From NCBI GenBank assembly GCA_044892525.1, contig CM097885.1, positions 20,090,001-20,154,000 of the forward strand: DNA of 64,000 bases. The letters run 5' to 3'. Source of the DNA: Schmidtea polychroa (Eukaryota). The stretch's first letter is position 1. Each line of letters starts with the position of its first letter. The notes beneath the pieces were generated by a model, which made no database searches, was not told the origin of the DNA, and worked only from the letters and a program-made list of their open reading frames with translations. Made by a program: the position numbers and the translations under genes. Shown here piece after piece: positions 1 through 63,878 of the stretch.

Positions 1-439
1 AAATAATAATAAAAGTAAAATACAGTTTATAAATATAAACATATAATGAAAAAATTATAAAATATAGCACACTAAATTTTAAAATCCTTTTGTAAAAATA
101 ACTACTTTTTAAAAAGTCAATTAAAGTTATTAAAATAAATAAATATATTTTAAAAATGTTAAATGATTGTTCAAACATGAATGTTGAAGCCTTTTCCGAT
201 GAAAATTATATATTTAATCTATTTTAATTTGAGTAGTTTTATCATGGAATATATATTTAGGACAATTTATTACAAAAAAGCTTTAAATTAATCATTATAT
301 AATAGAAATATAGTATTTTTATAATTATCTATACACTCATTACTTATTATTGAGATATAATATAGTTCAAATGAAAGAATGACGATTCATATAAATATGA
401 TCTTTCAATAGAAATATCTAAATACATAATTTTCTATGT

Positions 440-39967: not shown

Positions 39968-40729
39968 TCAATTGAATCCTTCCCCTTCGGCAATCATTTC
40001 ATCCATGTCGACCGACAGCCGCCGATCCGATATGAATTTGATTCCCTCGGCCGGAACTACCCGGAAGATCTCTTTCGCGGGGATCGAGTGAGTGGAAGAG
40101 ATCTCCTTAATGGTTGTCTGTGCCACAGATAGTGACGCTTCGAGTGCGGCTATAGCGTTCCTACGCTTTTGGTTCTTCTCCGAGCGAGTCGGTCGTTTCC
40201 GCTTTCGAGGTTGCAAGTTATTTCCCGCTGAAGGAGACGCGGTGGGTGCTACAAGACTTGGGGCCAAGATGGGGTCTGAAGGACCTCCTGCCATTGGTCT
40301 ATAGCCCGATAGCACTGGGGCTGGAATGGGAAGCAGATGTGGGCGGTGCCCCTTGCAACTTGAGGTTGAAGACTCCAAGGGTTGGTGATGAATTGGGAAC
40401 ACGTTGGTTCCATCTTGAATTGGGAATTCGCGCACTCGTTTCGCTAATTCAGCATCCGAATAAATCTTGTGGAGGGCTTCAGATTGAGCCTTTATTGTCA
40501 GTCGCTGACATCGGCTTTCCTCCAGGAGACTGTCACGACAGTGCTCCAATCTCAAAATTTTACTCCGCTCTTCCTTCATCTGTGGCGGGGAGAACCACGT
40601 TCCTTCGTATAAATCTATACGTTTTTTGAGAGCCCCAATATAGAGGTGAAGTTGTGCAATATCCGCGCTCTTGTCTGCACAAGAAAAACACGGGCGAAGC
40701 TCCTTGTTAGTGTTGGACGTTGTAGACAT
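39968..40729 (-). CDS. Orphan 253-aa protein in a GC-rich island (CxxC, coiled coil, Pro-rich, basic NLS-like segment)
   Basis: Uninterrupted ORF at much higher GC than its flanks; no family recognised. Confidence 0.5.
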   Translation of the reverse strand: MSTTSNTNKELRPCFSCADKSADIAQLHLYIGALKKRIDLYEGTWFSPPQMKEERSKILRLEHCRDSLLEESRCQRLTIKAQSEALHKIYSDAELAKRVREFPIQDGTNVFPIHHQPLESSTSSCKGHRPHLLPIPAPVLSGYRPMAGGPSDPILAPSLVAPTASPSAGNNLQPRKRKRPTRSEKNQKRRNAIAALEASLSVAQTTIKEISSTHSIPAKEIFRVVPAEGIKFISDRRLSVDMDEMIAEGEGFN

Positions 40730-41279
40730 CTAAAGATCAAGAAGGTTTTATTTTAATCCGTAAAATTATTCGCGTGAGATTTATAAATTCGAATGTGGGT
40801 TCGACAATCCTATCAATCATTCCATTCGGTGACGAATATGTCATTTGCCAATATTCATACGCATTTACCCTCAAGCCTTCAAGTTGATCCACTTAATCCA
40901 TGTAATTCAGAAAAAAGGAAATGGGGATTCTCAAAACAATTTACCTAATATAACTTCAACTTCCGTTTTACTTTTCGGATTGGACAATTTCCATCTAATA
41001 CCCTTTTATTAATTTATTACTAGCAATTCTACCATCTTTATTTTATTTGTTATGTCCTAATAATTATATTTTTAATCCTCTTGTTGCTAGACCCTATTTA
41101 ATTGTGCGTACGTTGTGTTAAGAAAGTGTAGTTCAGTGTCACCGGTGTCTCTTTGCGCTGTATCAAACCTGAAGGGGTTTATAAAAGAATCGAAATTTAT
41201 TAGTTTAATTTTTATCGTAAATTACAATTTGATTATTTTAAATCCTGCGCTATCAATATCGTCATGGTGATGCCTATCT

Positions 41280-44200
41280 GTGTGTAACTTTAACACCAAG
41301 TGTCAAGTATAATTTTAATAATCTTCAATGAATCACATAATTAGATTTTGGAGGATGAGTTAATAACAATTTTTCAACCTTAGACCCAGCAGGTTTCATT
41401 TTTTCAGCAGCTACAGGGAAATCATCCAACTTATCATGAAGCTCAGAAGGAATTACAAGATCAACTTCAAGAGTGTATCCATAAGACAAAGATTCAAGAT
41501 TTAAATTCCTACATTCATCCATTATTAAATCAAAGCCATCAAGAACCCAACTAAATTCGCCACAAGGTAATGATTGACTTAAAGCCCAACCATAAAGATT
41601 ATTAATATCTATATATAGTAACTCGGTGTTCTCATCGGTTTTTACGTAATGCTTATTCACAAAAGTAAGACCGCCTCTTATTCCACCCTCATAAAAGCTA
41701 AACATTTCGTTTTCAGTTATGAGCTCAATTGGTTCATTTAAAGACATTAATGCAGAAGACCAAGACATACCTGGAATTCCGAAATAATTCAATGGTTCCA
41801 ATCTATTGTGAGCAATGGATTTCAACCGAAACCGATGAAAGAAATCAGCCAAAAGAAAACAATCAAGTTTTAGGTAGATCATCATATAATCTAATAAAGT
41901 TAGGCAATTAGTTTCTACCCAAATCTCCTGAGCTTTTTCATACTCAAGCTCAGTGACACCCTCCCAGATTGGTGGTAATTCATAAGTAGTCTGGAGAATA
42001 TCTAAAGATGTGGCGAAATTATAAGGGAAGATTCCTTTTTCAGAAACTATAGTACCAGAAAAAGCAGAATTAGTAAAAGGCAAAGAATTCAAAGTTTTGA
42101 CTGCTTTAGCTAAAGAATCATTGACAAATTGATAAGAATCAATGAATCTTAAGCTAATTTTGCCTAAATGAGCAATCAAAGAAATAAATTTTTCAGTAGT
42201 TATTGGGATGCAACCTAAAGTCCAATTTTTAAATTTATTTAATCCGTATTTAAGTATATGATGCATATCGTATCCCTTCAAGTTATGAAATACGATAGGC
42301 AAAATTTTATTTATTTTCCTATTTATGTTACATGTGCTACAAGCTGCACCCAATTATTTCCCCGTAAAATGATCGTGATCTCTAACAGGATCGACGATAG
42401 ATTTCATACAAAGATAACAAACAGATGCACTAACAAATTGACGTTGTTCAATTTTTGTTAATTTCATCATAGGTTTCCTACCCATTTTATAATAAAAAGG
42501 AAGAACCTTATTTAATGCTATATCCTCTATAGCACTTAAAAACTCTCGACGCAATCTAAACCTATGAACTGTTGATAAGATTTAGATCCGTCAAAGTTAT
42601 TTACAAGTAAAAGACAAGCAGATATTGGCATGTGTCGTTGGAAATGAACATTATCAGAAGGTAAAATAGCCTCAAAAAAAACTACAAAAGGAGGAGTTAC
42701 TGTTTTCGACCAGTCAGTAAACTGTAATAATTTATTTTGAGGGAAAGTATAAAGAGTTGTTCCTAATTGATTACGTTTACATAATATTTCATGTTTGTCC
42801 AGTGCGTGTTTATACCTAAACCCATTCAAACACCGATGGCACCATAATGATTGTATGCGTGTAGAACAAGTAGTGTTGATATGACAATTCATTAACTTAT
42901 TTAAATTACTTATAGCAACGTAATGGAAATTGTTTCCTTTATTTAATAGTAGTAAATTAATTACAGTTCCATTTAAAACTTTGGAACGATGTATAATGTC
43001 TAAATGTGGATGTTTTAAAACGTAATTATCTGTTTATTGTTTGCTATTGTCATAAGAAAAAACGTTAATTATTAAGCCGGGATTTTTGGTCTCAAATTTT
43101 CTAATGTCTTTTAATTTCATGGGTAAATCTAACGGATTATATATTAAGTCGGATAAATTATAACTGGATGTCCTATTTCTATTTTGTCTACTAATCTCAT
43201 TATATTTTAAAATAGCTAAAATGCTATATAAAAAACATGAATCATCGGTATTTTTTATATTAATTAAGAATTTTTTATTTTTTAGACAAGTAGGTAGTTC
43301 AATGAAACTCCTACCACTTAATCTACTTAACCTACTTATTTTTGTTATGGTGAAGTGAATTTCTGTTATTTTTCTTATGATCCAGCTACTACCTAACTCT
43401 GTAATATTATTTATTTTCTCATTTAGTTCCCTAATGCCTTCATCAAAAAATGATGAAGTTAAAGGTTTTGCATAATTCGAAATATTATTAACCTTTATTT
43501 CCCCATCTTTTTCAAATTCGATTGTTATTCCGAATTGAATTTTGACGGAGCCTAATTCGTTAATAATATCTCTCAATTTTATAATTAATTGTTCTGGAAA
43601 TATTATTTCCTTTATATTTAAGTTACTAGTATTTAAACTTAATATTTGATGTGTACCCCTTAGATCTTTTTGTATTATGGGAACATTACCCCCTATTTGT
43701 ACAGTGGTTATTCCGTCCCAAGAATCAAAGGAAATATTATCCAATCCATCATTGGATTCACCTACATTCCAAGAATCAAGGGAAATATTATCCAATCCGT
43801 CATTGGATTCACCTACATTCCAAGAGTCAAGGGAAATATTATCCAATCCATCATTGGATTCACCTACATTCCAAGAATCAAGGGAAATATTATCCAATCC
43901 ATCATTGGATTCACCTACATTCCAAGAATCAAGGGAAATATTATCCAATCCATCATTGGATTCAACAACTAATCCATTATCGGATTCAACCTCTAATCCA
44001 TTATTGGATTCAACATCTAATCCAACCTGGGATTCAACCTCTAATCCGACCTGGGATTCAAAAGAAAAAGTATCTAATTTAATTTTTTTATCAGTAATAT
44101 TTATTTCTATACTCGAAGGTCGTTTAAAAAAACTATCTTTTTTAAAATTGAACCTATCTAAATGATGTTTATGTTTATTATAAAAAACACTATATGTTAC

Positions 44201-44334
44201 GGGGTCACTAGTCTTACATACGTTGCATATAAAAAAAGTTTTATTATAGTATTTTTTCGAGTAATAATTCTCCATTATAGAATGGCAATTATTATTATGT
44301 TCTTTCGATGAACAATAATTTGGGTAAAGTATAC
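41280..44334 (-). pseudogene. polB: Protein-primed DNA polymerase B pseudogene of the outer Polinton
   Basis: Collinear with inner pPolB (NTDDSCF, WCHRCLNGF, RDHDHFTGK, FHNLKGYD, RFIDSYQF, GIRGG, YIDINNLYGWAL); in-frame stops at 43034, 42354 and 41325, frameshift near 42545, C-terminus missing. Confidence 0.92.
43725..44060 (-). repeat. Coding tandem repeats (51-bp ESNDGLDNISLDSWNVG units, about 5 copies, plus 24-bp units) in the outer pPolB N-terminus
   Basis: Direct sequence and translation. Confidence 0.9.
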
Positions 44335-44934: not shown

Positions 44935-45489
44935 ATTTATGTATTTAAGTGTTATTTTTTATTTAAATATTTTAAAGTACAAATGTTGTTGAATAAATTT
45001 TTATTTTAAAGTTAATAATTTATAAGTTCTATCAATATAAAAAAATTTTTGCGAGGGATTTCCCCTTATTTCAAAATATTTTTTCCTCTTAAGATCAAAT
45101 AAATTTAAATATCATTATAAAAATTTAAATATCATTAAAAAAAATACTAATAATTTCATCATTAAATATCATTATAAAAAAATTTTTGCGAGGGATTTGT
45201 CTTATATCTATTTCAAAATATCGTTAATAATCAATTAAAAAATTTAATTTTCATCTTATCATTATAAAAAAAAATAGATAAAATTTTATAAAAAATATCA
45301 TTTAAAAAATTTAAATTTCATCTTATCATTATAAAAAATAGATAAAATTTTATAAAAAATATCATTTAAATTTCATTATAAAAAATAGATAAAATTTTAT
45401 AAAAAATACTTACATTTGACATTATTATTCATAGTTTCATTATTATTAATTTTCATAGTTTCATTATTATTAATTTTCATAGTTTCATT

Positions 45490-46720
45490 AGTAGGATGTG
45501 GGCCATCCAGATCATGTCCCCTCCAGATCACATATACCCCCTCCCCCCCCCACCGGGGAAAAAATTTTTTTTTTAAATAAAAGGTCAAGGTCATTTATTT
45601 TTTTTTAATTAAATTTTTTGTTTTAATTAAGTGATCCAGAGGGGACCTACTTTTTTTCTTCCCAAAAATTAATGTTCCTGCCAACAGATTTTATTGACCG
45701 ATACCTCATCTTAAAGCTCAGTCCAAGACCTTTCGAATGAGCTATAGGTATCATATATATCTTTAATAGTTTTAATGTTATTAACATTTAATGACCACCA
45801 TCTTTTAAAGTTAAATTATTATTATTTGTCAAAATATTATTAAGTGATCCAGAGGGGACCTACTTTTTGTCATCCCAAAGATTAATGTTCCCGCCAACAT
45901 ATTATATTGATCGATAGCTTATTTTAAAGCTCTGTGCAAGACCTTTCTAAGGAGATATAGATTTCTATAATATGATGACTCATCACATTTTTAAAACAAA
46001 GACAATGACTCGTCATATTTTTAGAACGATGCCTAATATTTTTAGAATGATTACGTCATAATTTTAGAACGATGTCTATTATTTTTAGAATGATGCCTAA
46101 TATTTTTAGAATGATTACGTCATACTTTTAGAACGATGCCTATTATTTTTAGAATGATGTCTAATATTTTTAGAACGATTACGTCATACTTTTAGAACGA
46201 TGCCTAATATTTTTAGAATGATTACATCATACTTTTAGAACGATGCCTATTATTTTTAGAACGATGCCTTTTAATTTTAGAATGATGCCTAATATTTTTA
46301 GAACTATTACGTAATCGATGTCTAATATTTTTAGAATGATGCCTAATATTTTTAGAATGATGCCTAATATTTTTAGAACTATTACGTAATCGATGTCTAA
46401 TATTTTTAGAACGAAGCCTAATATTTTTAGAGCGATTACGTCATACTTTTAGAACGATGCCTCTTATTTTTAGAATGATTACGTCATAATTTTAGAACGA
46501 TGCCAAATATTTTTAGAATGGTGCCTCTTATTTTTAGAACGATTACGTCATAATTTTAGAACGATGCCTAATATTTTTAGAATTAATAATTTTGTTTTAA
46601 TTATCGATGATTATATAATTTGTTTAAATCATTGATTATATAATTCTTCTGTTTTAATTATAGAATACGTAATAATATAATTTTGTTTAAATCGTTGATT
46701 ACATATTATTATTTTCTAAG

Positions 46721-46801
<81 letters not shown>

Positions 46802-46802
46802 G

Positions 46803-46887
<85 letters not shown>

Positions 46888-47044
46888 ATCTATCCGACAA
46901 GATATTCTGTCCCCCTATGGGTACTGCTCGCAAAGGTACTACTCACATTCAACAAGTTACAAATGTACTACTCACAAAGTTACTGGTAAAAATATTCAAG
47001 ACAAAACTTTCTAAATTCTAAATATTATACTTTAAATGTACACT
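45490..47044 (+). repeat. Left TIR of the inner Polinton (contains a ~20-bp minisatellite and an ATT tract)
   Basis: Reverse complement of 60306-61696, with scattered mismatches and array-length differences. Confidence 0.92.
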
Positions 47045-47273
47045 CAACTCATATATGTAGTGGTGAGCTCATACATACATTTCAAATAAAAATTTCTTTC
47101 AATAGTTAAACATGATTTATAAAAACTTTATCAATATTAATAAATATATTTATACAAGTGTTTAACATTTGTAAGAAATGTGAAAACTATAACAAGTTTT
47201 CAATAAAAATTTTAGATAATACAACAATGTAGAAGAAACGTTTTATTAAAGATATATTAACATTTATCACAGT

Positions 47274-53177: not shown

Positions 53178-53217
<40 letters not shown>

Positions 53218-53244
53218 TAATAATAATAATAATAAAATAATAAT

Positions 53245-53293
<49 letters not shown>

Positions 53294-53326
53294 TAATAAT
53301 AATAATAAAATAATAATATTAATAAT

Positions 53327-53399
<73 letters not shown>

Positions 53400-53428
53400 T
53401 AATAATAATAATAATAATAATAAAATAA

Positions 53429-53459
<31 letters not shown>

Positions 53460-53470
53460 AACAACAACAA
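53092..53470. repeat. (AAT)n microsatellite
   Basis: Direct sequence. Confidence 0.95.
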
Positions 53471-53489
53471 AGGATACAAAATACATTTA

Positions 53490-53873
53490 TTAATCATCAA
53501 ATTTTTTATACAACAACCAAGCTAAACAATGTTGACCGCATGTTTGTGTCAAGGGATTTTGAAACATTGTTTTATTATATACAATAGGTTTCCCCATTGT
53601 TTGTAGTTTTGATACCAACAAAGCAGGGTAATAGAAACCCATAGGATCGAACACGAATATATTACTAGGTTTCAGATATATAGCAATCCAATGTTCTCCA
53701 CCAAGATGAGACGATTGAGTATTGACGATTATGGCTTGATTATTGCTCAAATATGGGATTTTATCGAGAGGAAAAACTCCTACAAATTCATTTCCCAATA
53801 TCTGTTTTCCAATTCTATTGACCTGAACAGAACTACTTTAATAAATTAAACAGTATTGAAAAACTTACTCCAT
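53490..53873 (-). CDS. Adenain-like cysteine maturation protease with an intron after the first 5 nt (intron about 53868-53833)
   Basis: MD/SVQVNRIGKQILGNEFVGVFPLD...GEHWIA...FDPMG...QNPLTQTCGQHC: His-Asp-Gln-Cys set. Confidence 0.9.
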
Positions 53874-53901: not shown

Positions 53902-55125
53902 TTATACTAGCACGGTTCTATTTGCAGTAATTTGAACTTCATTTTCAAATACTCCATATATAATAACATGTACCGGTTCAGTAATGGCCTTTGCAAACTT
54001 TATATCCAGTCGTAAATTCCCGTTTTGTGGTAATTGACTCTGATTTAAATCAAAATCGGGAGCTAGAACAAATGTGAAAAATGGGTATTTGCTTTTAAAT
54101 TCTTCAAGAGTTATTCCGCAATTCAAGTTTTTATCTAAATAACCCAGATTTCTAACAATACTCTGCATATATGTCGCACAGTAATTATCATTCTCGAAAT
54201 CTTGAGTATATGTTTCTCTATAATCAGTATTTTTCGATAAAGTCAATGAAGTAACACCAAAATTTTTGAAAATTGAGCTGGAAGCAGTATACGATCCATT
54301 ATATTGCGTTTCACTTTGAAATGTTACCAGAATAAAATTAGGCATTCTTCTGTCACCAAATATTTGTTCTTTATAGAATGATGAAGCACCTTTAGCAATA
54401 GCAAATTGTACAATTTCCTTTGTTTTTAAAGGATAAATTGCATGTTTTGAATTAAGCCCCAATTGATGACCAGCTAATACTGACGGGTCTACTCGAACTC
54501 TTCTCACCAATAATTTTGCATCAACTAATTGACATATTGGTGCACCAGTTGCACTAGTAAGAGACAATGCAGAATCAGATCTTTTCAGTCTAATATGTAT
54601 ATTAACTCCCGGTAGTAAATATTTCGGTTGATCCATAAAATCAAGTTGTAATGATGAGCACATAGTGAATACTTTTGAGCCTTTAACCCACTTTTTTCTT
54701 TCATCATCTGCTGCTGCATAACCCATAGGTGTAAGACAGGTATTTTTAGTATCTGAATTGTAATTTAAAATAGTTTCTATCAAAGCCTTGTGAATGAATG
54801 TATTATTTCCACCCTCAATCTTGATATTATTAAATCCCAACACTGCATCTTTAAACAGAGTATGAAACATGAAATTGTTTGGTAATACATCCGCATTGGC
54901 ATCCAAAACCTTTCTATCTTTATCTACAACCTTGATCTGAACAGTCAATAAAGTATCGTTCAAATCTAAATATTCAGTTTGCGAACCATTAATATAAAAC
55001 TCGATATCATTTCTACTATCAGTAATTGAATTCATAGGAAAAACTTCCTCAAAGGCACCAAATTCTATTACTGCCTGGGGCGACGGTCTATCAAATATAC
55101 ATAATTCGGATTTACCACAAATCAT
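53902..55125 (-). CDS. Major capsid protein (double jelly-roll type)
   Basis: 407 aa; KSELCIF start, IEFYING..EYLDLNDTLL, QPKYLLPGVNIHIRLKR, GNLRLDIKF: typical Polinton MCP pattern. Confidence 0.9.
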   Translation of the reverse strand: MICGKSELCIFDRPSPQAVIEFGAFEEVFPMNSITDSRNDIEFYINGSQTEYLDLNDTLLTVQIKVVDKDRKVLDANADVLPNNFMFHTLFKDAVLGFNNIKIEGGNNTFIHKALIETILNYNSDTKNTCLTPMGYAAADDERKKWVKGSKVFTMCSSLQLDFMDQPKYLLPGVNIHIRLKRSDSALSLTSATGAPICQLVDAKLLVRRVRVDPSVLAGHQLGLNSKHAIYPLKTKEIVQFAIAKGASSFYKEQIFGDRRMPNFILVTFQSETQYNGSYTASSSIFKNFGVTSLTLSKNTDYRETYTQDFENDNYCATYMQSIVRNLGYLDKNLNCGITLEEFKSKYPFFTFVLAPDFDLNQSQLPQNGNLRLDIKFAKAITEPVHVIIYGVFENEVQITANRTVLV

Positions 55126-55484
55126 TTTGCAAATATAGTTCCATGTCCTTTCATTCGTTTGTTTATACGCGATATTCCATGCCCTTTACGTTTTGGAGCT
55201 GGGACTGGAGGTGTATCTTTTTGAAACATACCAGCAACTCCAGGTAGAACCTTCCCTAACTCAGCTAAAGCATTTGTTTTTAGAGATGGTAATATTTTCT
55301 GTTCATTCATAATCACATCTTTTGCAGTTTTCATACCAAAACTACCAATACGTTTAAGAATAGGAAGTGCAAATCTCCCTATTGTTTTTAACCAACCTGA
55401 TCCGTACTGTTTACCAATAAAATATGGTAATTCACCACCGGATTGGCTATCACTATACATACTAATAATATCGGAATTAGCCAT
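55122..55484 (-). CDS. Putative virion core protein with protease-cleavage-like sites
   Basis: SQSGG, QYGSGWLKTIGRFALPILKRIG amphipathic helix, basic tail; stop overlaps the MCP ATG (ATGA). Confidence 0.75.
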   Translation of the reverse strand: MANSDIISMYSDSQSGGELPYFIGKQYGSGWLKTIGRFALPILKRIGSFGMKTAKDVIMNEQKILPSLKTNALAELGKVLPGVAGMFQKDTPPVPAPKRKGHGISRINKRMKGHGTIFAK

Positions 55485-56544
55485 CTACTTTACGAAAATG
55501 TAGTGTCAAATGAGTTTTTGAGTCTTTTGGGAAGTTTATAAGTTTTCCACTATCGTCACGAATATTTATTTCTATATTGTTTATACATGAGCTTGAAATT
55601 GGTAAATACATGGGATTATCTATATTTATATTGACAACTTCATCATGTTCATATTTTCCAATCCACACCGATTTCAATAGAGGAACACTGGAATCACCAA
55701 CTATTATAGGCTCAATAATATTAGTATATATGAACATTTGTTGATGATGTTCAAGTATTCTTGGTTTACGTATACCAGCCGATTTTTCCCGATATTGCTG
55801 CTTCTCTAATCCAAGTGTATTTGTCAAATTTTTATCAAATGTAACTTCGCAAATGTCATCATTCAAACTGAAGGTAAATAACAAATCTTTCACAATATCC
55901 AAACTTTTAAATATGTGTGAACAATTATACTTTAAATATTTAAGTAACACATCAAGTTTATCAATATATAATTCGTCAGCGAAGGTGAATGATTCTTCAA
56001 CTTCATTATTATACGACACTGAAATTTTGATTTCTTCTCTCATTACACTGTTTGCTTCAAATAGATCAAAGCGTAATAAATATTCTGTTTCCATAACTTC
56101 ATTTTTCAACTTATTGCAACCCATTCGTCTGGCATCTTCAATATATTCGAATTTTATTGTAAATGGTTTAAAATCACAACTGATATTTAATCCATCCTTG
56201 TAAAACATAGTGCAATGCTGATCTAATATTTGATTCGGAATATGATATGTTTTATCATAATTACTGATAATAAAGATACCACTACATGTTTTCATAGCAT
56301 TCCTTTTGAAATCAATCTTACATTGACTATAAAATGGGAATGTATTGTACACGAATGTAAAATCTTGCAGTGCAACTTCCCAGTCACCATTTAAAGAAAT
56401 CGGATTCTGGAGATTGACCATGAATTTACTGGCTTGATTATCTGGATGAATAAGCGGGCAACTATTGCTTGGTAAAATAGTATAAAAATTCACTTTACTA
56501 GATCCTTTTCTGATATCCATGATGGGTTTTGATAACCATGCCAT
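55477..56544 (-). CDS. Minor capsid protein (penton); true start uncertain
   Basis: FYTILPSNS...NPISLNGDWEVAL; MFIYTNIIEP..VGD...PLL; IEINIRDDSGKLINF...LTLHFRK. Confidence 0.88.
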   Translation of the reverse strand: MAWLSKPIMDIRKGSSKVNFYTILPSNSCPLIHPDNQASKFMVNLQNPISLNGDWEVALQDFTFVYNTFPFYSQCKIDFKRNAMKTCSGIFIISNYDKTYHIPNQILDQHCTMFYKDGLNISCDFKPFTIKFEYIEDARRMGCNKLKNEVMETEYLLRFDLFEANSVMREEIKISVSYNNEVEESFTFADELYIDKLDVLLKYLKYNCSHIFKSLDIVKDLLFTFSLNDDICEVTFDKNLTNTLGLEKQQYREKSAGIRKPRILEHHQQMFIYTNIIEPIIVGDSSVPLLKSVWIGKYEHDEVVNINIDNPMYLPISSSCINNIEINIRDDSGKLINFPKDSKTHLTLHFRKVDG

Positions 56545-57548
56545 TTGACATAGTATTGTTTATCCTTGCCTTTATTTTTAGTTTTCAAAATCTTCTGAAT
56601 TCTAAATACTTTTGGGGGAGGAATAACTTGTAATTCCTGCTCATAAAATTTTCCTTGTACAATATTGTTATCATTATCTTTGATGACATACATTACAGGA
56701 TTCTGTTTAGTATTTATTTTTGAAATTACAAAGACTTCATCACTCCAATTTGTATCGAAATTTTTAATAAATGGTGATGCACTAATTTTACTAATTCTAA
56801 CATGGTCACCTACTTTATATTTCGGTTTTGTAATTTTTTCAGGTTTTTTAGAATAGATTGTTTTTGACGTGATATCAATCGGCCTTAATCCATTCAGTCC
56901 TTGATGTGATGAGTGATTATAACTGGTTATTATTTTTGGTAAAACCAATACCCATTTTTTATTACCTTGATGCACGAATAATTTCTTTAATCTATCTCTC
57001 AAAGTTCGGTTAAATCTTTCAACATGAGCAGCTTTGTATTGAGAATGTACTGAGTAATGGTTTATTTTCAATTTATTGAGGATTTGCTTGACTTTACTGT
57101 TGTAGAATTCTTTACCTAAAATAATAATAATAATAATATTAATAATAATAATATTAATACCTAAATCAGTTTGCAAGTTTTTAGGATGTCCATCTTTAAA
57201 TAAATGATTAACAGCTTTGGACATTTCATCTGCAGATTTTGCCTTGACGGGTATTGCTCGGGCAAACCGACTGAATACATCAATACATGTTAAAATATAT
57301 TTATACCCATTGTTAATTTTCGAATAGGGTATCATCTCCATCAAATCCATTTGCCATAAATCATTTATTCCATATGTTTTATATGCTCTTGTTGGGAATC
57401 GTTTCCGCATTGGTTTGTTCAAACTGTACGCAAGCTGGTCTGATAACCACTTCTGTGTTTCCTTTTTCGAATTCGGAACTCTTTTCCTTAATTTTGCCAC
57501 TCCACCAAAACCGGCTTCGTCTTCCGGGTTCGTCCAAATCTTCTCCAT
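56490..57548 (-). CDS. int: Retroviral-type integrase with C-terminal chromo-like domain; 45-bp intron 57160-57116
   Basis: WQMDL, IDVFSRFA, QTDLG/KEFYN after splicing, KAAHVERFNRTLR, YYVKWHGY. Confidence 0.93.
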   Translation of the reverse strand: MEKIWTNPEDEAGFGGVAKLRKRVPNSKKETQKWLSDQLAYSLNKPMRKRFPTRAYKTYGINDLWQMDLMEMIPYSKINNGYKYILTCIDVFSRFARAIPVKAKSADEMSKAVNHLFKDGHPKNLQTDLGINIIIINIIIIIILGKEFYNSKVKQILNKLKINHYSVHSQYKAAHVERFNRTLRDRLKKLFVHQGNKKWVLVLPKIITSYNHSSHQGLNGLRPIDITSKTIYSKKPEKITKPKYKVGDHVRISKISASPFIKNFDTNWSDEVFVISKINTKQNPVMYVIKDNDNNIVQGKFYEQELQVIPPPKVFRIQKILKTKNKGKDKQYYVKWHGYQNPSWISEKDLVK

Positions 57549-57606
57549 TACAACAAGAAGATTTAATATTAAATTTAATGTCTGGTAATGAAGGATTAGC
57601 ACCCAT
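57379..57606 (-). CDS. Small putative N-myristoylated protein overlapping the integrase 5' end
   Basis: MGANPS fits MGxxxS; SSCC; ATG 3 nt after the upstream stop codon. Confidence 0.6.
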   Translation of the reverse strand: MGANPSLPDIKFNIKSSCCNGEDLDEPGRRSRFWWSGKIKEKSSEFEKGNTEVVIRPACVQFEQTNAETIPNKSI

Positions 57607-57609
57607 TGT

Positions 57610-58150
57610 TTATGATCGACTTCCTATTATTCCACCTAATAATGATATTGCTAAAGGTATCAATGCACCGATAAATCCCCCTTGTTGTTTATATATAATT
57701 TTTCTCATTTGTTGACGATTTTTATTATTTACTAATGATAGCAAAGGTTTCCTATGTTTACTCAATAATTGCTTTTTAGATTTACTGATTTTAATCTTGC
57801 CTTTGACTACTTTAAGTATAATATCGAGTAAATCATCGACAACATAATTTGGAAATGATTGCAAAATACTGTTTCTTTTCATACTTGGTGCCTTTAACAA
57901 TGTATTGAAAAACGGGAAACTCCGATGATTTTTAACAACTTTTACTTTCTTAGTGGTTTTACTTTTAGGTTTAGGTTTAGGATTTTTCGAAATAAGATTC
58001 ATTGCAGGAAAATTTTCTGTAATAAGATCTTTAGATGGAGTATAACTAGTTGTTGGTGGAACTTTTGGTTGTTTTTTACCCGATATCCTTGTTTTTGAAA
58101 ACTTGATTTATATGTTTTCAACTTTGTTTTGAACTTTGTTTATATACCAT
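57610..58150 (-). CDS. Basic virion protein with C-terminal GG-F amphipathic peptide; start at 58002, or ATG 58150 plus a 46-bp intron (58147-58102)
   Basis: Lys-rich body ending KQQGGFIGALIPLAISLLGGIIGSRS; frame open to 58101. Confidence 0.75.
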
Positions 58151-58756
58151 GGCACCTTTTGGGTTGAAAATATCTGTTTTTACCCGTATATCATCAGGGC
58201 ATTGTTGTGTGAAATCGAGAAATATATACCCATGCGGTATTTTCGTGGCATCTTGAAATGCACTGATAAGAAAATTACGGTTATTAGGGTATGCTTGTCG
58301 TCCAAGAAAATCAATGACAGTTGCATCTCTAGGATTCTTGAAAATAACTAAATATTGTACATTTAAATTACGTGTTCGATGTGCACCACCTTGATGAAAT
58401 AGATTTTGTGTTATGAAAATAACTGTTACACCAACATGTCTGCTGATTTTTGTGAATAAATTATTAAAGTCCTTTTCTTTATTGGCTTCTTGATACAAAT
58501 CATCGATAATGATGACATCATCTTTCTTCAAACGACTTGACCAGTTTTTATCAAAGCCCTTTACTATTTTCATGTTTTTCAACTGACAGAAACTTGATTG
58601 CGTCAATCCGTGTTCTTCGTCGGCGCCCCTATGCCAATAAATATTGTTGAATTTTGTTTTAAACAAATTTGATTTTAGTAATTTACAAACAAATAAAGTT
58701 TTCCCGCTACCACTTGGACCAACGATTTGGTATACTGCATCATTTCGTAATTCCAT
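58118..58756 (-). CDS. A32/FtsK-like genome packaging ATPase
   Basis: Walker A GPSGSGKT, Walker B IIIDD, SRH, ITQNLF, FKNPRD. Confidence 0.93.
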   Translation of the reverse strand: MELRNDAVYQIVGPSGSGKTLFVCKLLKSNLFKTKFNNIYWHRGADEEHGLTQSSFCQLKNMKIVKGFDKNWSSRLKKDDVIIIDDLYQEANKEKDFNNLFTKISRHVGVTVIFITQNLFHQGGAHRTRNLNVQYLVIFKNPRDATVIDFLGRQAYPNNRNFLISAFQDATKIPHGYIFLDFTQQCPDDIRVKTDIFNPKGAMVYKQSSKQS

Positions 58757-58861
58757 TTTTTAAAATTTAAACTATATAATTATTGTTTATATTGATAATT
58801 TAAATGAACTCTGTTTTTAAATACCTATATATATCAAAGTTTTTAAAATTATTTCATTAAA

Positions 58862-59326
58862 ATGCTTTCAAATATAAATTACAGGGCAAAAACTGATGTA
58901 TCAAAAATGATATTTCCAATAGGGAAACCACAACAACTTATCAATAGAAGTAATAAATATCCAATAATATATTTCAAAACTGGTAAATGTAGAATTATGG
59001 GGTGTAAGGAAATAATCAAAGCTAGTGAATATAATGTTTATGATTTAGAAATACAATCGATAACCGTAACTTCCGATATAGGTTTTTCTTGTAATTTAAA
59101 TAAATTAGCTAAATTAATACCATGCTTTTATGAACCAGAATTATTTCCAGCTTTGAGATATATAAAATATAACCCTATGTGTGTAAATATATTCGCTAGC
59201 GGTAAGATAGTAATTCTTGGAATAAAAAATATTGATTACAAAAGTATAGTTGATAATATCATATCTGAAATTAAATCAATAATTGAAGGAAAAGAATTTT
59301 TAGATTTTTTATTATCACTTAATTAA
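58862..59326 (+). CDS. TATA-binding protein (TBP)-like protein, 154 aa, encoded by the Polinton
   Basis: Two TBP repeats: LSNIN...IIYFKTGKCRIMGCK and IQSIT...CNLNKLA...YEPELFPALRY...VNIFASGKIVILGIK. Confidence 0.88.
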   Translation: MLSNINYRAKTDVSKMIFPIGKPQQLINRSNKYPIIYFKTGKCRIMGCKEIIKASEYNVYDLEIQSITVTSDIGFSCNLNKLAKLIPCFYEPELFPALRYIKYNPMCVNIFASGKIVILGIKNIDYKSIVDNIISEIKSIIEGKEFLDFLLSLN

Positions 59327-59364
59327 TTATTTATCATTCAATTAAAACAAAAACATACTGCAAT

Positions 59365-59400
59365 CTGATTGGATGATAAACAATAGTCATAGGTATAAAA
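59365..59400 (+). promoter_or_regulatory. Inverted CCAAT box plus TATAAAA promoter of ORF 59435
   Basis: CTGATTGG at 59365; TATAAAA at 59394-59400. Confidence 0.55.
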
Positions 59401-59434
59401 ACCCTGTACCATTTCATTTTAATCATAATTCACA

Positions 59435-59854
59435 ATGACCAAGAAAATTTCAAGCACTGAAAAACCAAAAGTAGTTCCAGAACTTGTACAACCTGTTCAA
59501 ATGTTCCACAACTACAAGATGTATTTTTTAAAAGAAGAAATCAATATGAAATTGGTGTCACCGATCAAGCTAATTCCTACCCAATTTCAATTCTTAACCG
59601 GCACGCTTTCAATGTTAGATATTAAAACCATAGATGATGTTTTCAAAAGGTTGAATACGAATCTATCATGCAATCAAAATGCATTTTTCAACAACCGATA
59701 TGCAAAATTTTATGATTCCTTTGATGAAATCAGTTTCAAAGAAAACGAAAATTGGTATATAACAATTACAATCCAAGGATATAAAGTTGATAATAATGAT
59801 GTGTATTCTCCAATTTGGAAAATTATGTCTGCTAGACTTTCACAGTTATTTTAA
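59435..59854 (+). CDS. Conserved Polinton protein, 139 aa, possibly OB-fold ssDNA-binding
   Basis: Homolog in the outer element; C-terminal beta-strand pattern ITITIQGYKV...SPIWKI; function inferred only. Confidence 0.7.
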   Translation: MTKKISSTEKPKVVPELVQPVQMFHNYKMYFLKEEINMKLVSPIKLIPTQFQFLTGTLSMLDIKTIDDVFKRLNTNLSCNQNAFFNNRYAKFYDSFDEISFKENENWYITITIQGYKVDNNDVYSPIWKIMSARLSQLF

Positions 59855-59950
59855 TGTTGTATTTAATAAATGTATTTAGTCATATTTGTTTTCGCTTATA
59901 TTCTATATTTTCTATAAACAAATATATACTATAGTTTTAAAATACTAATA

Positions 59951-60309
59951 ATGACTACAGAAAAAGGTTAATATGATTAGTTAATTATCGAATTATTTAA
60001 TATTTAGAATTTATAATAAACTTTTTATTGGAAAAGTTAGCAGAAATATCTGGTGTGAAAATTGAGGACATATTATCTGTTACAAACGCATTAAATATCG
60101 GCTGGGTAGCAGAGAGTGAAGATTCGGAATTTGATGAAACAGATGAAGAAAACACTCAAGATGATGAGGAAAGCATTCAAGAAATTGATGAACCTATGGA
60201 GGAATTTACGGATACTGAACCGTGTGTATATAGGGATTGTATAGATCATGTTGTTGAAAATGTTATGAACTGTGGAGATGATGAATGTGAATGTGTTAAT
60301 AAATTTTAG
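59951..60309 (+). CDS. Two-exon acidic protein with Cys/His-rich C-terminus, 105 aa (intron 59967-60007)
   Basis: ATG ACT ACA GAA AAA G/gt...ag/AA joins in frame to ORF 60028; acidic core and CVYRDCIDH...CGDDECEC. Confidence 0.7.
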
Positions 60310-60478
60310 TGAATATTTAAAGAATAATATTTAGAATTTAGAAAGTTTTGTCTTGAATATTTTTACAAGTAATTTTGTGAACAGTACCCTTGTGACTTGT
60401 TGAGTGTGAGTAGTACATTTGTGTGCAGTATCCTTAGGGGGACAGAATATTTTGTCGGATAGACTCTGTGTATATATG

Positions 60479-60550
<72 letters not shown>

Positions 60551-61696
60551 CTTAGAAAATAATAATATGTAATCAACGATTTAAACAAAATTATATTATT
60601 ACGTATTCTATAATTAAAACAAAAGAATTATATAATCAATGATTTAAACAAAATTATATAATCATCGATAATTAAAACAAAATTATTAATTCTAAAAATA
60701 TTAGACATCGTTCTAAAAGTATGATGTAATCATTCTAAAAATAATTGGCATCGTTCTAAAAATATTAGACATCGTTCTAAAAGTATGACGTAATCGTTCT
60801 AAAAATATTAGGCATCGTTCTAAAAATATTAGGCATCGTTCTAAAAGTATTACGTAATCGCTCTAAAAATATTTGGCATCGTTCTAAAAATATTAGGCAT
60901 CGTTCTAAAAATATTTGGCATCGTTCTAAAAATATTAGACATCGATTACGTAATAGTTCTAAAAATATTAGGCATCGTTCTAAAAATATTAGGCATCGTT
61001 CTAAAAGTATGACGTAATCGTTCTAAAAATATTAGGCATCATTCTAAAAATAATAGACATCGTTCTAAAAATATTTGGCATCATTCTAAAATATTAGACA
61101 TCATTCTAAAAATGTGATGAGTCATTGTCTTTGTTCTAAAAATGTGATGAGTCATCGTATGATAAAAATCTATATCTCATTAGAAAGTTCTTGCACAGAG
61201 CTTTAAAATAAGCTATCGATCAATATAATATGTTGGCGGGAACAATAATTTTTGGGATGAAAAAAAGTAGGTCCCCGCTGGATCACTTAATAATATTTTG
61301 AAAAATAATAATAATTTAACGTTGAAAAGATGGTGGTCATCAATTGTTAATAACATTAAAACTATTAAAGATATATAAGATACCTATAGCTCATTCGAAA
61401 GGTCTTGGACTGAGCTTGAAGATGAGGTATCGTTCAATAAAATTTGTTGGCGGGAACATTACTTTTGGGAAGAAAAAAAGTAGGTCACTGCTGGACCAAT
61501 TAATTTAAAAAAAATTACGTAATAGTTCTAAAAATATTAGGCATCGTTCTAAAAATATTAGGCATTGATTACGTAATAGTTCTAAAAATATTAGGCATCG
61601 TTCTAAAAAAAAAAATAAAATTTTTCAGACCGGCGGGGGGAGGGGGTATATGTGATCTGGAGGGGACATGGTCTGGGGAGCCCACATCCTACTACT
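60306..61696 (-). repeat. Right TIR of the inner Polinton
   Basis: Reverse complement of 45490-47044; ends CTACTACT. Confidence 0.92.
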
Positions 61697-62241
61697 TTCA
61701 TTATTAGCATTTTTCATAGTTTCATTATTATTAATTTTCATAGTTTCATTATTATTAATTTTCATAGTTTCATTATTATTCATTTTTGATTTTTTATCTA
61801 AAAATAATTAAATTTTAATAATTAAAAAATAAAATTCTTACAATCCTTGGTACTTGCAAATTATGACCAAATTTAAAAAACAAATCATTTATATACTTCT
61901 TCTTCTACTTAATACATTACGTAATTATTAAAGGATTAAATTTGATATTTAATACCTTGCGTAATAATTAAAGGATTAAATACCTTACATAATAATTAAA
62001 GGATTTAATGCCTTACATAATTAACTTAATTAAAGATTTAGTTTAATAAATTTTAATAATCAACTAAAAATTTATTGAAATAATTTAATAATCAGCTAAA
62101 AATTTATTGAAATAATATTTAAATTGTTGATCGAGCAAATAACTTGGGATGATGGTTATATAAGCTCGAACATTTAATTGTGAATATTATTTTGTTTTGT
62201 GAATAAATTATTTTAAAAAAACAGCTTTTTATTATAAAAAT

Positions 62242-62620
62242 TTATTTCATTGACTTTAACCAAGCCAAACGATGTTGTCCACATGTTTTTGTTATAGGAT
62301 TTTGGTAACGTATTCGATTGCATTCAATTGGCATTAACATTGATTGTAGTTTATTGATTAATATAGGTGGATAATAGAATCCCATTGGATCAAATGCATA
62401 TATTTTGTTTGGTTTCACGTATACTGCAAGCCAATGTTCACCATTCAGATTAGCAGATTGAGTATTTACAATTATTGCTTTGTTGACATCTAAATAAGGT
62501 ATTTTGTCTAATGGGAAAACACCTAGAAATTCTTTTCCTAGTAATTTTCTTCCGATAATATGTATCTGAATAGAACTAAATTAATAATAATTAAATAATT
62601 TAAATTAATTCTTACTTCAT
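62242..62620 (-). CDS. Outer Polinton cysteine protease (intron 62615-62576)
   Basis: MN/SIQIHIIGRKLLGKEFLGVFPLDKIPYL...NGEHWLA...FDPMG...QNPITKTCGQH. Confidence 0.85.
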
Positions 62621-62654: not shown

Positions 62655-63878
62655 TTATACCAAAACAGTACGAGTAGATGTAATTTGAATTTCTTTTTCA
62701 AAAACTCCATATACAATTACAGAAACAGCTTCAGTAAGTGAAGATGCGAATTTAATATCTAATCGCAAATTTCCACTTTGTGGTAACTGACTTTGATGAA
62801 GATCAAAATCTGGTGCCAATACGAATGTAAAGAATGGATACTTGCTCTTAAAATCAGACATGGTGATACCACAATTCATATTTTTATTTAGATAACCCAT
62901 ATTTCTAATAATTGATTGCATATAACTTGTACTATAATCATCATTCTCAAAATCTTGACTGTATTTTTCGCGATAATCACTTCCTTTACTTAAAGTTATG
63001 GACTTGACATTAAAGTGATCAAATATAGAAAATGATTCTGAAAACGATCCACTAAATCTTTTACTAGATTGAAATGCAACAAGAATAAAATTAGGTAGTC
63101 GTCTATCTCCAAATATTTGTTCTTTATAAAAAGAGGAAGAACCAATAGGTAATGAGAAATCAACAACTTCTTTGCTTCTTAAAGGATAAATTGCATTTTT
63201 TGTAGACAGACCAATTTGATGTCCTGCCAAAACCGATGGTTCAACACGAACTCTTCTAACCATTAATTTTGCGTCTAATAATAAAATTTTCGGTTCAATT
63301 TTCGCTCAAGTTAAACTAAGTGTTGGATTTGATCTTGTTAATTTAATTTGAACACTAACACCTGGTAGTAAATATTTAGGTTGATCAAAGAAATCAAATT
63401 GAAGTGGGGAACATAAAGAAAAGGATTTTAATTTTTCAATCCATGTTTTTCTCGTAAGATCTTTGTTAGTATACTCCATTCCACCTAAAGATGTTCGTTT
63501 AGTATCTCCGTCATAATTTATAAGTGTTTCAATTAATGCTTTGTGGGCAAATCTATCATTTGATCCTTCAACTTTGATTGAATTAAAAATTAATTCAACA
63601 TCTTTTAAAAGGGTTTGGAAGAAGAAATTATTTGGAATTACTTCTGATTCGCCTAAATTCTCACCAAAATTATTAACAACTTTCAATTGAATATATAACA
63701 AAGTATCATTCAAATCTAAATATTCAGTTTGCGATCCGTTTATGTAAAATTGAATCGAAGAAGAACCAGCATCTGTAATTGAATTTCTTGGGTATATATC
63801 TTCAAATGCTCCATGTTCAATCACTGCTTGGGGAGAAGGTCTATCAAAAAGACATAATTCTGATTTAGCACTAATCAT
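62655..63878 (-). pseudogene. Outer Polinton major capsid gene with one in-frame TGA (63306-63308)
   Basis: ORFs 63306-63878 and 62655-63263 are in the same frame and collinear with the inner MCP. Confidence 0.9.

Follow-up and report, generated by a model that had tools for sequence, protein, structure and literature searches.

A reduced TATA-binding protein homologue in a Polinton of Schmidtea polychroa and a promoter-like word upstream of capsid-module genes

Why should a mobile element that has no RNA polymerase carry a gene for the TATA-binding protein (TBP)? The question is raised by a 64,000-nucleotide stretch of the Schmidtea polychroa genome (GenBank assembly GCA_044892525.1, contig CM097885.1, positions 20,090,001 to 20,154,000; hereafter the window, to which positions refer unless another contig is named). 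It contains an element of ~17 kb, bounded by terminal inverted repeats (TIRs) and equipped with an adintovirus-like gene set, in which an open reading frame (ORF) of 154 codons resembles TBP. The original prediction, made from the sequence, held that this ORF is an intact TBP homologue with both repeats, that it lies in a genuine Polinton without RNA polymerase, and that it might redirect the RNA polymerase II (Pol II) and TFIIB of the host to the promoters of the element. We conclude that the ORF is almost certainly a true TBP homologue, reduced and asymmetric, inside a Polinton, and refer to it as mini-TBP. What it does there can be answered with far less certainty.

One complete and one reduced TBP repeat

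The similarity to TBP goes well beyond chance. Against the Pfam TBP family (PF00352), mini-TBP scores 56.6 bits with an E-value of 2.4e-15, far above the cut-off of 22.9, which settles the profile check that had been proposed for its identity; the match covers aa 62-135, i.e. one repeat only. In a phmmer search of the PDB chains, TBPs are the best matches (top E-value 9.1e-17) with archaeal TBPs ranked highest, and residues 60-141 align with both repeats of the archaeal proteins. Profile-profile alignment (hhalign) of the mini-TBP family with five canonical TBPs gives a probability of 99.35, and aa 13-141 correspond to TBP from the end of the repeat-1 helix H1 to the end of repeat 2, with a gap of ~15 residues at the repeat-1 helix H2. 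The original claim of both TBP repeats thus stands for repeat 2, which is complete, and has to be sharpened for repeat 1, which is reduced, missed by Pfam, and seen only by the profile-profile alignment and the predicted fold. Two Pfam TBP stretches were detected in some relatives of mini-TBP (L037, L079 and L081).

Canonical TBP has four intercalating Phe residues, two per repeat, and contacts TFIIB through its acidic stirrup, E-P-E-L. Mini-TBP keeps three of the four Phe residues (F95, F111 and F38). The sequence features first described by eye are present as claimed: repeat 2 has YEPELFPAL (aa 90-98) and IFASGK (aa 110-115) with the acidic stirrup and both Phe residues, and repeat 1 has a single Phe, within IYFKTGK (aa 36-42). 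The hhalign result agrees with the latter, placing F38 at the second intercalating position of repeat 1 and the family-invariant P23 at the first, and aligning F18 with the Tyr at which the stirrup opens. Across the family, E91, P92 and E93 of the stirrup are invariant and L94 is nearly so; the other invariant residues are F95, P105, C107, N109, F111, G114, K115, L119 and G120 in repeat 2, and I5, N6, Y7, P23, F38, R44 and G47 in repeat 1. The family can be recognized by the signatures IQS.T, LFPALR, CVNVF and GKCRIMGC.

An AlphaFold2 model, built from an alignment of 30 family members, reached a predicted local distance difference test (pLDDT) score of 94.5 and a predicted template modelling (pTM) score of 0.83. 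Residues 59-154 are modelled as a complete TBP repeat (S1', H1', S2'-S5' and a long H2'), and repeat 1 as strands at residues 2-10, 25-28, 35-38 and 42-48 with a short helix at 54-57, so that aa 1-53 are devoid of any helix of four or more residues. All 44 Foldseek matches in the PDB at E <= 0.001 are TBPs, with query-normalised TM-scores of 0.59-0.72. In structural alignments by VIA-align, 38 TBP entries gave Z-scores of 9.9-12.3 and root-mean-square deviations of 2.3-2.9 Å over 138-144 residues, compared with a Z-score of 6.7 for the best non-TBP chain, and residues 1..145 of the model overlay whole two-lobed TBP cores (e.g. 65..240 of the yeast protein). The TBP saddle, whose absence was to count against the original prediction, is therefore predicted by AlphaFold2 and recognized by both comparison methods, and according to the model mini-TBP forms a two-lobed saddle.

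As judged from this model, mini-TBP is a one-and-a-half-repeat TBP, which retains the DNA-facing sheet of both lobes and the convex helices of one. It is homologous to canonical TBP and shares with it the predicted two-lobed saddle and a C-terminal lobe with both Phe residues and the YEPELF stirrup, whereas its repeat 1 lacks H1, H2 and strand S2 and has one Phe. The canonical core comprises ~180 aa, as opposed to the 154 aa of mini-TBP, and mini-TBP further differs in being intronless, encoded by a mobile element and present in hundreds of copies. It would be the smallest natural TBP architecture known to us, with the DNA face of the N-terminal lobe remodelled at P23 and R44.

Copies, relatives and constraint

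In the genome (781 Mb in 1012 contigs), a 29-mer of the mini-TBP gene has 854 matches at up to three mismatches, against 0 for the reversed control. A protein search of the same genome returned 4144 first-look candidates; 150 of them underwent scoring, and each of these has an open frame and 99-100% identity. The 30 copies that were sampled, being the first exact 29-mer loci in genome order, are 95.7-100% identical overall, and 29 of them keep the intact 154-codon frame at 97.6-100% identity. A second subfamily (156 aa) is found in older, partly decayed elements of the genome, which keep the divergent arrangement of the ATPase and TBP genes and a homologous downstream ORF.

The family extends well beyond these two groups. 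A word-indexed search yielded 97 relatives, nearly all of ~145-175 aa and all with PF00352, at 33-59% identity apart from one 95% fragment. An exhaustive profile search gave 3339 proteins at E <= 0.001 (ordinary TBPs included), 731 at E <= 1e-10 and 58 clusters at E <= 1e-30, and a metagenome scan found 90 encoding stretches, 80 of which were kept. With hundreds of genomic copies, a second subfamily and metagenome relatives, the gene is clearly not restricted to a single copy. In IMG/VR, only one weak TBP relative was found (32% identity, on a 44.7-kb contig).

We surveyed the gene context at the 13 longest metagenome loci, with 107 ORFs of at least 110 aa, of which 86 ORFs from 12 loci were scanned with Pfam; the 86 exclude ORFs with antisense overlap, every ORF of L045 and a few of those in L032, L040 and L041. 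At 11 of the 12 loci, the TBP-like gene is accompanied by an A32-type ATPase, an rve(+chromo) integrase, pPolB or adenain, and at L032 Pfam found none of the four. The genes surrounding TBP vary in order and orientation among the loci, whereas TBP itself is retained and usually adjoins the packaging ATPase. The mini-TBP gene is thus a conserved component of a whole Polinton lineage equipped with an adintovirus-like gene set.

The most divergent clade of mini-TBPs (L083, L087, L079, L081 and L095; 167-169 aa) shows several peculiarities. Additional genes beside TBP encode phospholipase A2-like (PF08398, E-values from 4e-12 to 1e-10) and C2H2 zinc-finger proteins, a KilA-N protein is encoded next to the TBP gene in L087 and L095, and the TBP genes of the clade have their own conserved upstream sequence in common. 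With regard to the abundance of such elements, a Dugesia genome preprint reports Maverick expansions in planarians.

The host genome has TBPs of its own. One is canonical and bears introns, two paralogues are similar to it, and another three TBP-like loci have the canonical two-repeat layout. We constructed a maximum-likelihood tree from repeat 2 only (42 rows and 91 columns, the broken row L103 having been dropped). The tree is divided by a branch with support values of 95/87: all 25 mini-TBPs and two odd relatives fall to one side, and the three host paralogues, a eukaryotic TBP, archaeal TBPs and further metagenome TBPs with two repeats fall to the other. Because the mini-TBPs are grouped apart from the host TBPs, the gene is not a recent capture from the host; the tree with host TBPs, which had been suggested from the outset, thus separates the two. 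This repeat-2 tree of 42 rows does not single out any TBP lineage as the source of the family.

Animal TBP paralogues such as TRF2/TBPL1 serve special promoter sets. Mini-TBP resembles these TBP-related factors as a diverged TBP that may act at special promoters, and the host genome has several such paralogues; they differ from mini-TBPs, however, in keeping two full repeats (214 aa in L113 and 202 aa in L117) and in lying across the 95/87 branch. Two relatives, P0228 (184 aa) and L102, have a longer repeat 1 with helix-like segments recognizable by eye and group with the mini-TBPs, and with one another at 92/85. Judging by sequence, they are possible intermediates between the full and the reduced forms of TBP.

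A further observation concerns TFIIB. At least 13 loci of the genome encode an intronless TFIIB paralogue of 301-310 aa (zinc ribbon, E = 1.5e-10; TFIIB repeat, E = 1.2e-10), e.g. at L160:572-1477 on the minus strand. They form two clusters, at C3:38.2-39.1 Mb and C1:23.8-24.2 Mb, which adjoin an ordinary intron-bearing TFIIB gene (L157) and a BRF1-like gene (L152). These paralogues could be partners of mini-TBP, or they could be part of another repeat.

We assessed selection by the Nei-Gojobori method (NG86, custom script); of the 80 ORFs positive in hmmsearch, the 60 that reached 140 aa and 97 bits were included. Among the 109 of 1770 mini-TBP pairs with 0.05 < dS < 1.5, the median dN/dS (omega) is 0.30, the range is 0.05-0.64, and no pair exceeds 1; the closest pairs (dS 0.06-0.7) have omega values of 0.05-0.45. 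Between the window copy and subfamily 2 of the same genome, dN is 0.30 and dS ~1.3. These estimates point clearly in the direction of purifying selection on mini-TBP between lineages, and they argue against neutral evolution, under which the original prediction was to be abandoned.

The word ATAAACA(A) and its candidate reader

An unbiased count of 8-mers in the 70 nt upstream of 129 ORFs (at least 100 aa) at 14 loci ranks ATAAACAA first, with 25 occurrences against 2.26 expected, followed by TATAAACA with 24 against 2.10. The word common to the sense strand of the elements is (T)ATAAACA(A), in full form (T)ATAAACAA, and the distance from the end of the motif to the ATG is mostly 24-35 nt at the 14 loci. 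In the window as a whole, ATAAACAA occurs 23 times against 14.6 expected, a number that is reached in 5 of 100 shuffles and is unremarkable alone. However, nine of the 23 sites lie inside a 6.4-kb gene block, and each of the nine is oriented in the sense direction of the neighbouring genes.

The distribution among gene classes is more informative. In sense orientation and at no more than 100 nt, ATAAACA precedes 12/12 ATPase genes, 7/7 genes for the major capsid protein (MCP) and 6/8 integrase genes, compared with 1/7 pPolB genes and 0/17 TBP genes. The specificity of the ATAAACA(A) motif for capsid-module genes is new here. A promoter is a better explanation of the motif than a poly(A) signal, because the copy before the ATPase gene lies in the divergent spacer, where that strand has no upstream gene. 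Likewise, the motif before the 355-aa ORF sits inside the coding region of the integrase, which favours a promoter over a terminator. In two sequencing runs that we guessed to be RNA, contig depth over the non-coding stretch at 50.6-53.3 kb is lower than over the genes, although contig depth cannot show transcription.

We propose, at a probability of about one half, that an early-expressed mini-TBP directs host TFIIB and Pol II to the ATAAACA(A) promoters of the capsid-module genes. The element, having no RNA polymerase of its own, would first have the TBP gene, and probably pPolB as well, transcribed from ordinary host-type promoters; in the window copy, a TATATATA stretch is found ~30-40 nt upstream of the TBP start codon. 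Next, mini-TBP would bind to ATAAACA(A), the variant 3' half of the box being contacted by the remodelled N-terminal lobe, and the intact C-terminal stirrup would recruit host TFIIB and Pol II to the 'late' genes of the capsid module, i.e. those for packaging, capsid and integrase. In canonical TBP, the N-terminal repeat rests on the 3' half of the box. It is suggestive that the non-canonical 3' half (AACAA) would face the remodelled N-terminal lobe, which is a match and not evidence. The helices of repeat 1 are used by TFIIA, NC2, Mot1, TAF1 and Brf1 in canonical TBP. Their loss would strip mini-TBP of these surfaces for host regulators, and mini-TBP would then be independent of host control. 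Extending the proposal to a two-tier programme of an entire RNA-polymerase-less Polinton lineage, in which a minimal TBP re-targets either host TFIIB and Pol II or the intronless TFIIB paralogues to (T)ATAAACAA, is tentative, and we would put the odds somewhat against it.

The redirection of host Pol II and TFIIB to the element's own promoters, as envisaged in the original prediction, is thereby consistent with circumstantial evidence, namely a TATA-like motif confined largely to the capsid module and a weak TFIIB co-fold, and it remains a proposal. The co-fold was carried out with the core (residues 105-308) of P0239, a TFIIB with 92% identity to the host exon. The score was 0.49 (0.50, 0.49 and 0.48 in the individual runs), as opposed to 0.00 for the best of three controls; contacts agreed to at least 92% between the runs, and the pLDDT of the partner was at least 85. 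The prediction of a complex with TFIIB thus passed the mark, as did 51 of 78 solved complexes, compared with 2 of 108 mismatched pairs.

Several points weigh against the proposed mechanism. The co-fold support is weak, since scores of 0.60 or below were reached by only 5 of the 78 solved complexes and by all 4 mismatches that passed, and because TBP-TFIIB complexes have already been solved, the network may have reproduced known structures, and the pass indicates likeness at most. The mini-TBP family has lost one of the four intercalating Phe residues and has Ser in place of the central Asn of repeat 2, so that DNA binding of the canonical type is not assured. The loci behind the gene-class counts are not independent, as they include the close relatives L040/L041, L118/L119/L121 and L079/L081/L095. 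As for selection, NG86 values of dS near 1 are rough in sequence of 70% AT and near saturation. Differences within the young family look neutral, with 61 non-synonymous against 9 synonymous changes in 29 copies compared with the window copy; they are dominated by two variants (I17V in 27 copies and S128C in 17), and, being few and largely shared, give no information on selection. Finally, TBP-less sister elements, which could show whether motif and gene vary together, were not found in IMG/VR, where the search gave no relative of the capsid protein either.

The motif may also be read by something else. ATAAACA fits the forkhead core, RYAAAYA, and as TATAAA-CA it could be read by host TBP; in either case mini-TBP would be unnecessary at these promoters. 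Motif and protein would then be unrelated, and mini-TBP might be a DNA-bending architectural protein that serves replication, integration or packaging on the AT-rich termini. A FoxM1 paper reportedly concerns 'TAAACA', and a role at the termini would suit a gene that usually lies beside the packaging ATPase in elements with long, AT-rich and repetitive TIRs. We nevertheless consider this explanation unlikely: a motif kept strictly in sense orientation and at a narrow range of distances from the ATG is what one expects of a core promoter, not of an enhancer-type site; an invariant stirrup of the TFIIB-binding type has no obvious architectural use, and Pfam scans revealed no forkhead gene in the window element or in any of the scanned metagenome elements.

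The invariance of the stirrup in a protein whose repeat-1 helices are gone, and the co-fold with TFIIB (0.49 against 0.00 for the control, weak and indicating likeness only), would be compatible with a decoy or competitor as well, which titrates host TFIIB or sits on host TATA boxes where, for want of the repeat-1 surfaces, no initiation complex could assemble, and thereby damps transcription of the host or of rival elements. Such a role seems quite improbable to us, as it leaves unexplained both the invariant DNA-facing residues (N6, P23, F38, R44 and G47) and a gene-class-specific motif that recurs across elements whose TBPs are 33-59% identical. That mini-TBP is a mere passenger, a captured host TBP fragment without function in a successful transposon, we regard as very improbable. 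The neutral appearance of the substitutions in the young family would accord with it, and the sheer number of copies would by itself keep many frames open; yet the length and the invariant residues are kept over 33-59% identity with omega values of 0.05-0.64, the TBP gene survives rearrangements of gene order, and the mini-TBPs form one group apart from the host TBP paralogues.

If host TFIIB and Pol II are indeed directed by mini-TBP, a 17-kb element without polymerase would divert the host polymerase at the level of TBP, a strategy different from that of giant viruses, and a virus would have hijacked core promoter recognition itself instead of an upstream activator. The family is large and conserved and comes with a simple candidate target word that splits the genes of the element into two classes. 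Mini-TBP also represents a natural experiment in TBP minimisation, which could show the surfaces that are needed for promoter binding, TFIIB recruitment and regulation, and it may help to explain how a Maverick family reaches hundreds to thousands of near-identical copies in an animal-sized genome.

A parallel is found in giant viruses (Nucleocytoviricota), which also encode TBP homologues, presumably for viral promoters. They have, however, their own multisubunit RNA polymerase and TFIIB/TFIIS, whereas the ~17-kb element has none, and since it lacks both polymerase and TFIIB, mini-TBP would have to use host factors. One study describes a TBP of Megavirus chilensis that is expressed with viral RNA polymerase subunits, and late-promoter words that are shared by giant viruses, virophages and transpovirons (PMC11464507). 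Such words resemble the present motif in being short and conserved before one temporal gene class of a small DNA virus; there, they are read by the transcription machinery of the giant virus, whereas the Polinton shows no sign of a helper virus and itself encodes the candidate reader. TBPs are also mentioned, in a passage of another paper, in mirusvirus-like elements (PMC10675990).

Closer to Polintons, the legend of Fig. 5 in Starrett et al. (2021, PMC8502044; also in preprint form) lists a gene label 'TBP' for MELD viruses with adintovirus-like PolB from non-animal datasets. It denotes a TBP-like gene of viruses that are, broadly, of the same class, medium-sized and with PolB and an integrase; the legend gives the label only, from which membership in the mini-TBP family cannot be deduced. 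The supplement text of that paper (one file) contains neither 'TBP' nor 'TATA', and neither does the text of a PLV-framework preprint (2026). The suggestion that TBP is undescribed in Polintons therefore has to be qualified by this legend, and it holds insofar as we found no analysis in print: our search, with figures and bioRxiv supplements outside its range, gave no published account of a reduced TBP, its spread in Polintons, its selection or the ATAAACA motif.

The Polinton and its surroundings

The element is a Polinton/Maverick with an adintovirus-like gene set. Its features are listed in Table 1. As had been stated at first, it is a bona fide Polinton; we identified pPolB, an rve integrase, an A32-like ATPase, a double-jelly-roll MCP and TIRs; the 154-aa ORF runs uninterrupted between the inverted-repeat arms, the spacer to the divergent gene measures exactly 105 bp, and neither the ORF list nor Pfam reveals an RNA polymerase gene among the ORFs of the element. 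The TIR arms measure 1.6-2 kb and are 71-99% complementary in pieces.

Table 1. Features of the element and of the mini-TBP locus, in window coordinates
Feature	Position	Strand	Evidence or remarks
Left TIR region with internal tandem repeats	45066..47050		inverted-repeat pairs I1-I14, local alignment; outer end approximate
pPolB, 1336 aa	47274..51284	-	54% identity over 825 aa to L037 pPolB (PF03175 DNA_pol_B_2, 8.8e-28)
Adenain-like protease frame, 115 open codons	53490..53837	-	tblastn 41% identity over 112 aa, E 2e-21, to Peptidase_C5-positive L073 ORF
MCP, double jelly-roll, 407 aa	53902..55125	-	AlphaFold2 pLDDT 69.2; Foldseek
120-aa ORF	55122..55484	-	ORF list; no Pfam match
355-aa ORF	55477..56544	-	31-32% identity to two L037 ORFs, E 2e-38 and 2e-46; no Pfam match
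rve integrase with C-terminal chromodomain	56490..57548	-	PF00665 4.3e-8; Chromo 4.7e-4
130-aa basic ORF	57610..58002	-	no significant Pfam family
A32/FtsK-like genome-packaging ATPase	58118..58756	-	Pox_A32 2e-7, above cut-off
Divergent ATPase/TBP spacer, 105 bp	58757..58861
ATAAACAA in divergent spacer	58783-58790	-	26 nt upstream of ATPase ATG
TATATATA stretch in divergent spacer	~30-40 nt upstream of TBP ATG		window copy
ATAAACAA sites, nine within 55159..59921	55159, 55577, 56556, 57606, 57685, 58136, 58783	-
	59376, 59914	+
mini-TBP ORF	58862..59326	+	154 aa, ATG to stop uninterrupted
mini-TBP reduced repeat 1, aa 1-58	58862..59035	+	four strands, without H1/H2; F38 kept; invariant P23 replaces the other Phe
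mini-TBP complete repeat 2, aa 59-154	59036..59326	+	YEPELFPAL 59129-59155; IFASGK 59189-59206
139-aa ORF, conserved mini-TBP neighbour	59435..59854	+	31% identity, E 8e-12, to L037 ORF beside TBP gene
93-codon acidic Cys-rich ORF	60028..60309	+	listed TTG start, doubtful coding; no Pfam family
Right TIR region	60300..62115		inverted-repeat pairs, local alignment; outer end approximate

The top Foldseek matches of the modelled MCP are the MCPs of iridovirus, PBCV-1 (chlorovirus), mavirus and Sputnik, with E-values from 7e-16 to 1e-12, and the 355-aa ORF is possibly another capsid-module protein. In the window copy, the adenain-like frame has no ATG at its 5' end, and its last 50 aa, which form an ORF with an ATG of their own, have no match in Pfam; a microsatellite-rich stretch (53179-53521) follows. 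The pPolB ORF includes a weak Endonuclease VII-like stretch (Endonuclease_7, E = 6e-4) and an N-terminal extension of ~450 aa, in which a Cys-containing stretch recalls an OTU-type protease by eye, Pfam reporting none. PolB genes with OTU domains are mentioned in passages of the adintovirus paper (PMC8502044).

The 139-aa ORF downstream of mini-TBP has no match in Pfam and no usable one in the ESM Atlas. Its homologue of 146 aa comes after the TBP gene in subfamily 2, where Pfam gives only mRNA_triPase at E = 0.021, below the cut-off. Between the 139-aa ORF and the ORF that immediately precedes the TBP gene in L037, no similarity was found.

At position 58758, directly upstream of the ATPase start, contigs of two sequencing runs diverge into other sequence, pointing to subfamilies whose neighbour at this position differs. 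The element is flanked by remnants of other Polinton copies (62248-62553, 62655-63878 and 39968-44275, all on the minus strand), including pPolB fragments at 41325..42266 (DNA_pol_B_2, 4.5e-15). Just beyond the right TIR, a second protease-like stretch is 42% identical over 107 aa to the L073 protease.

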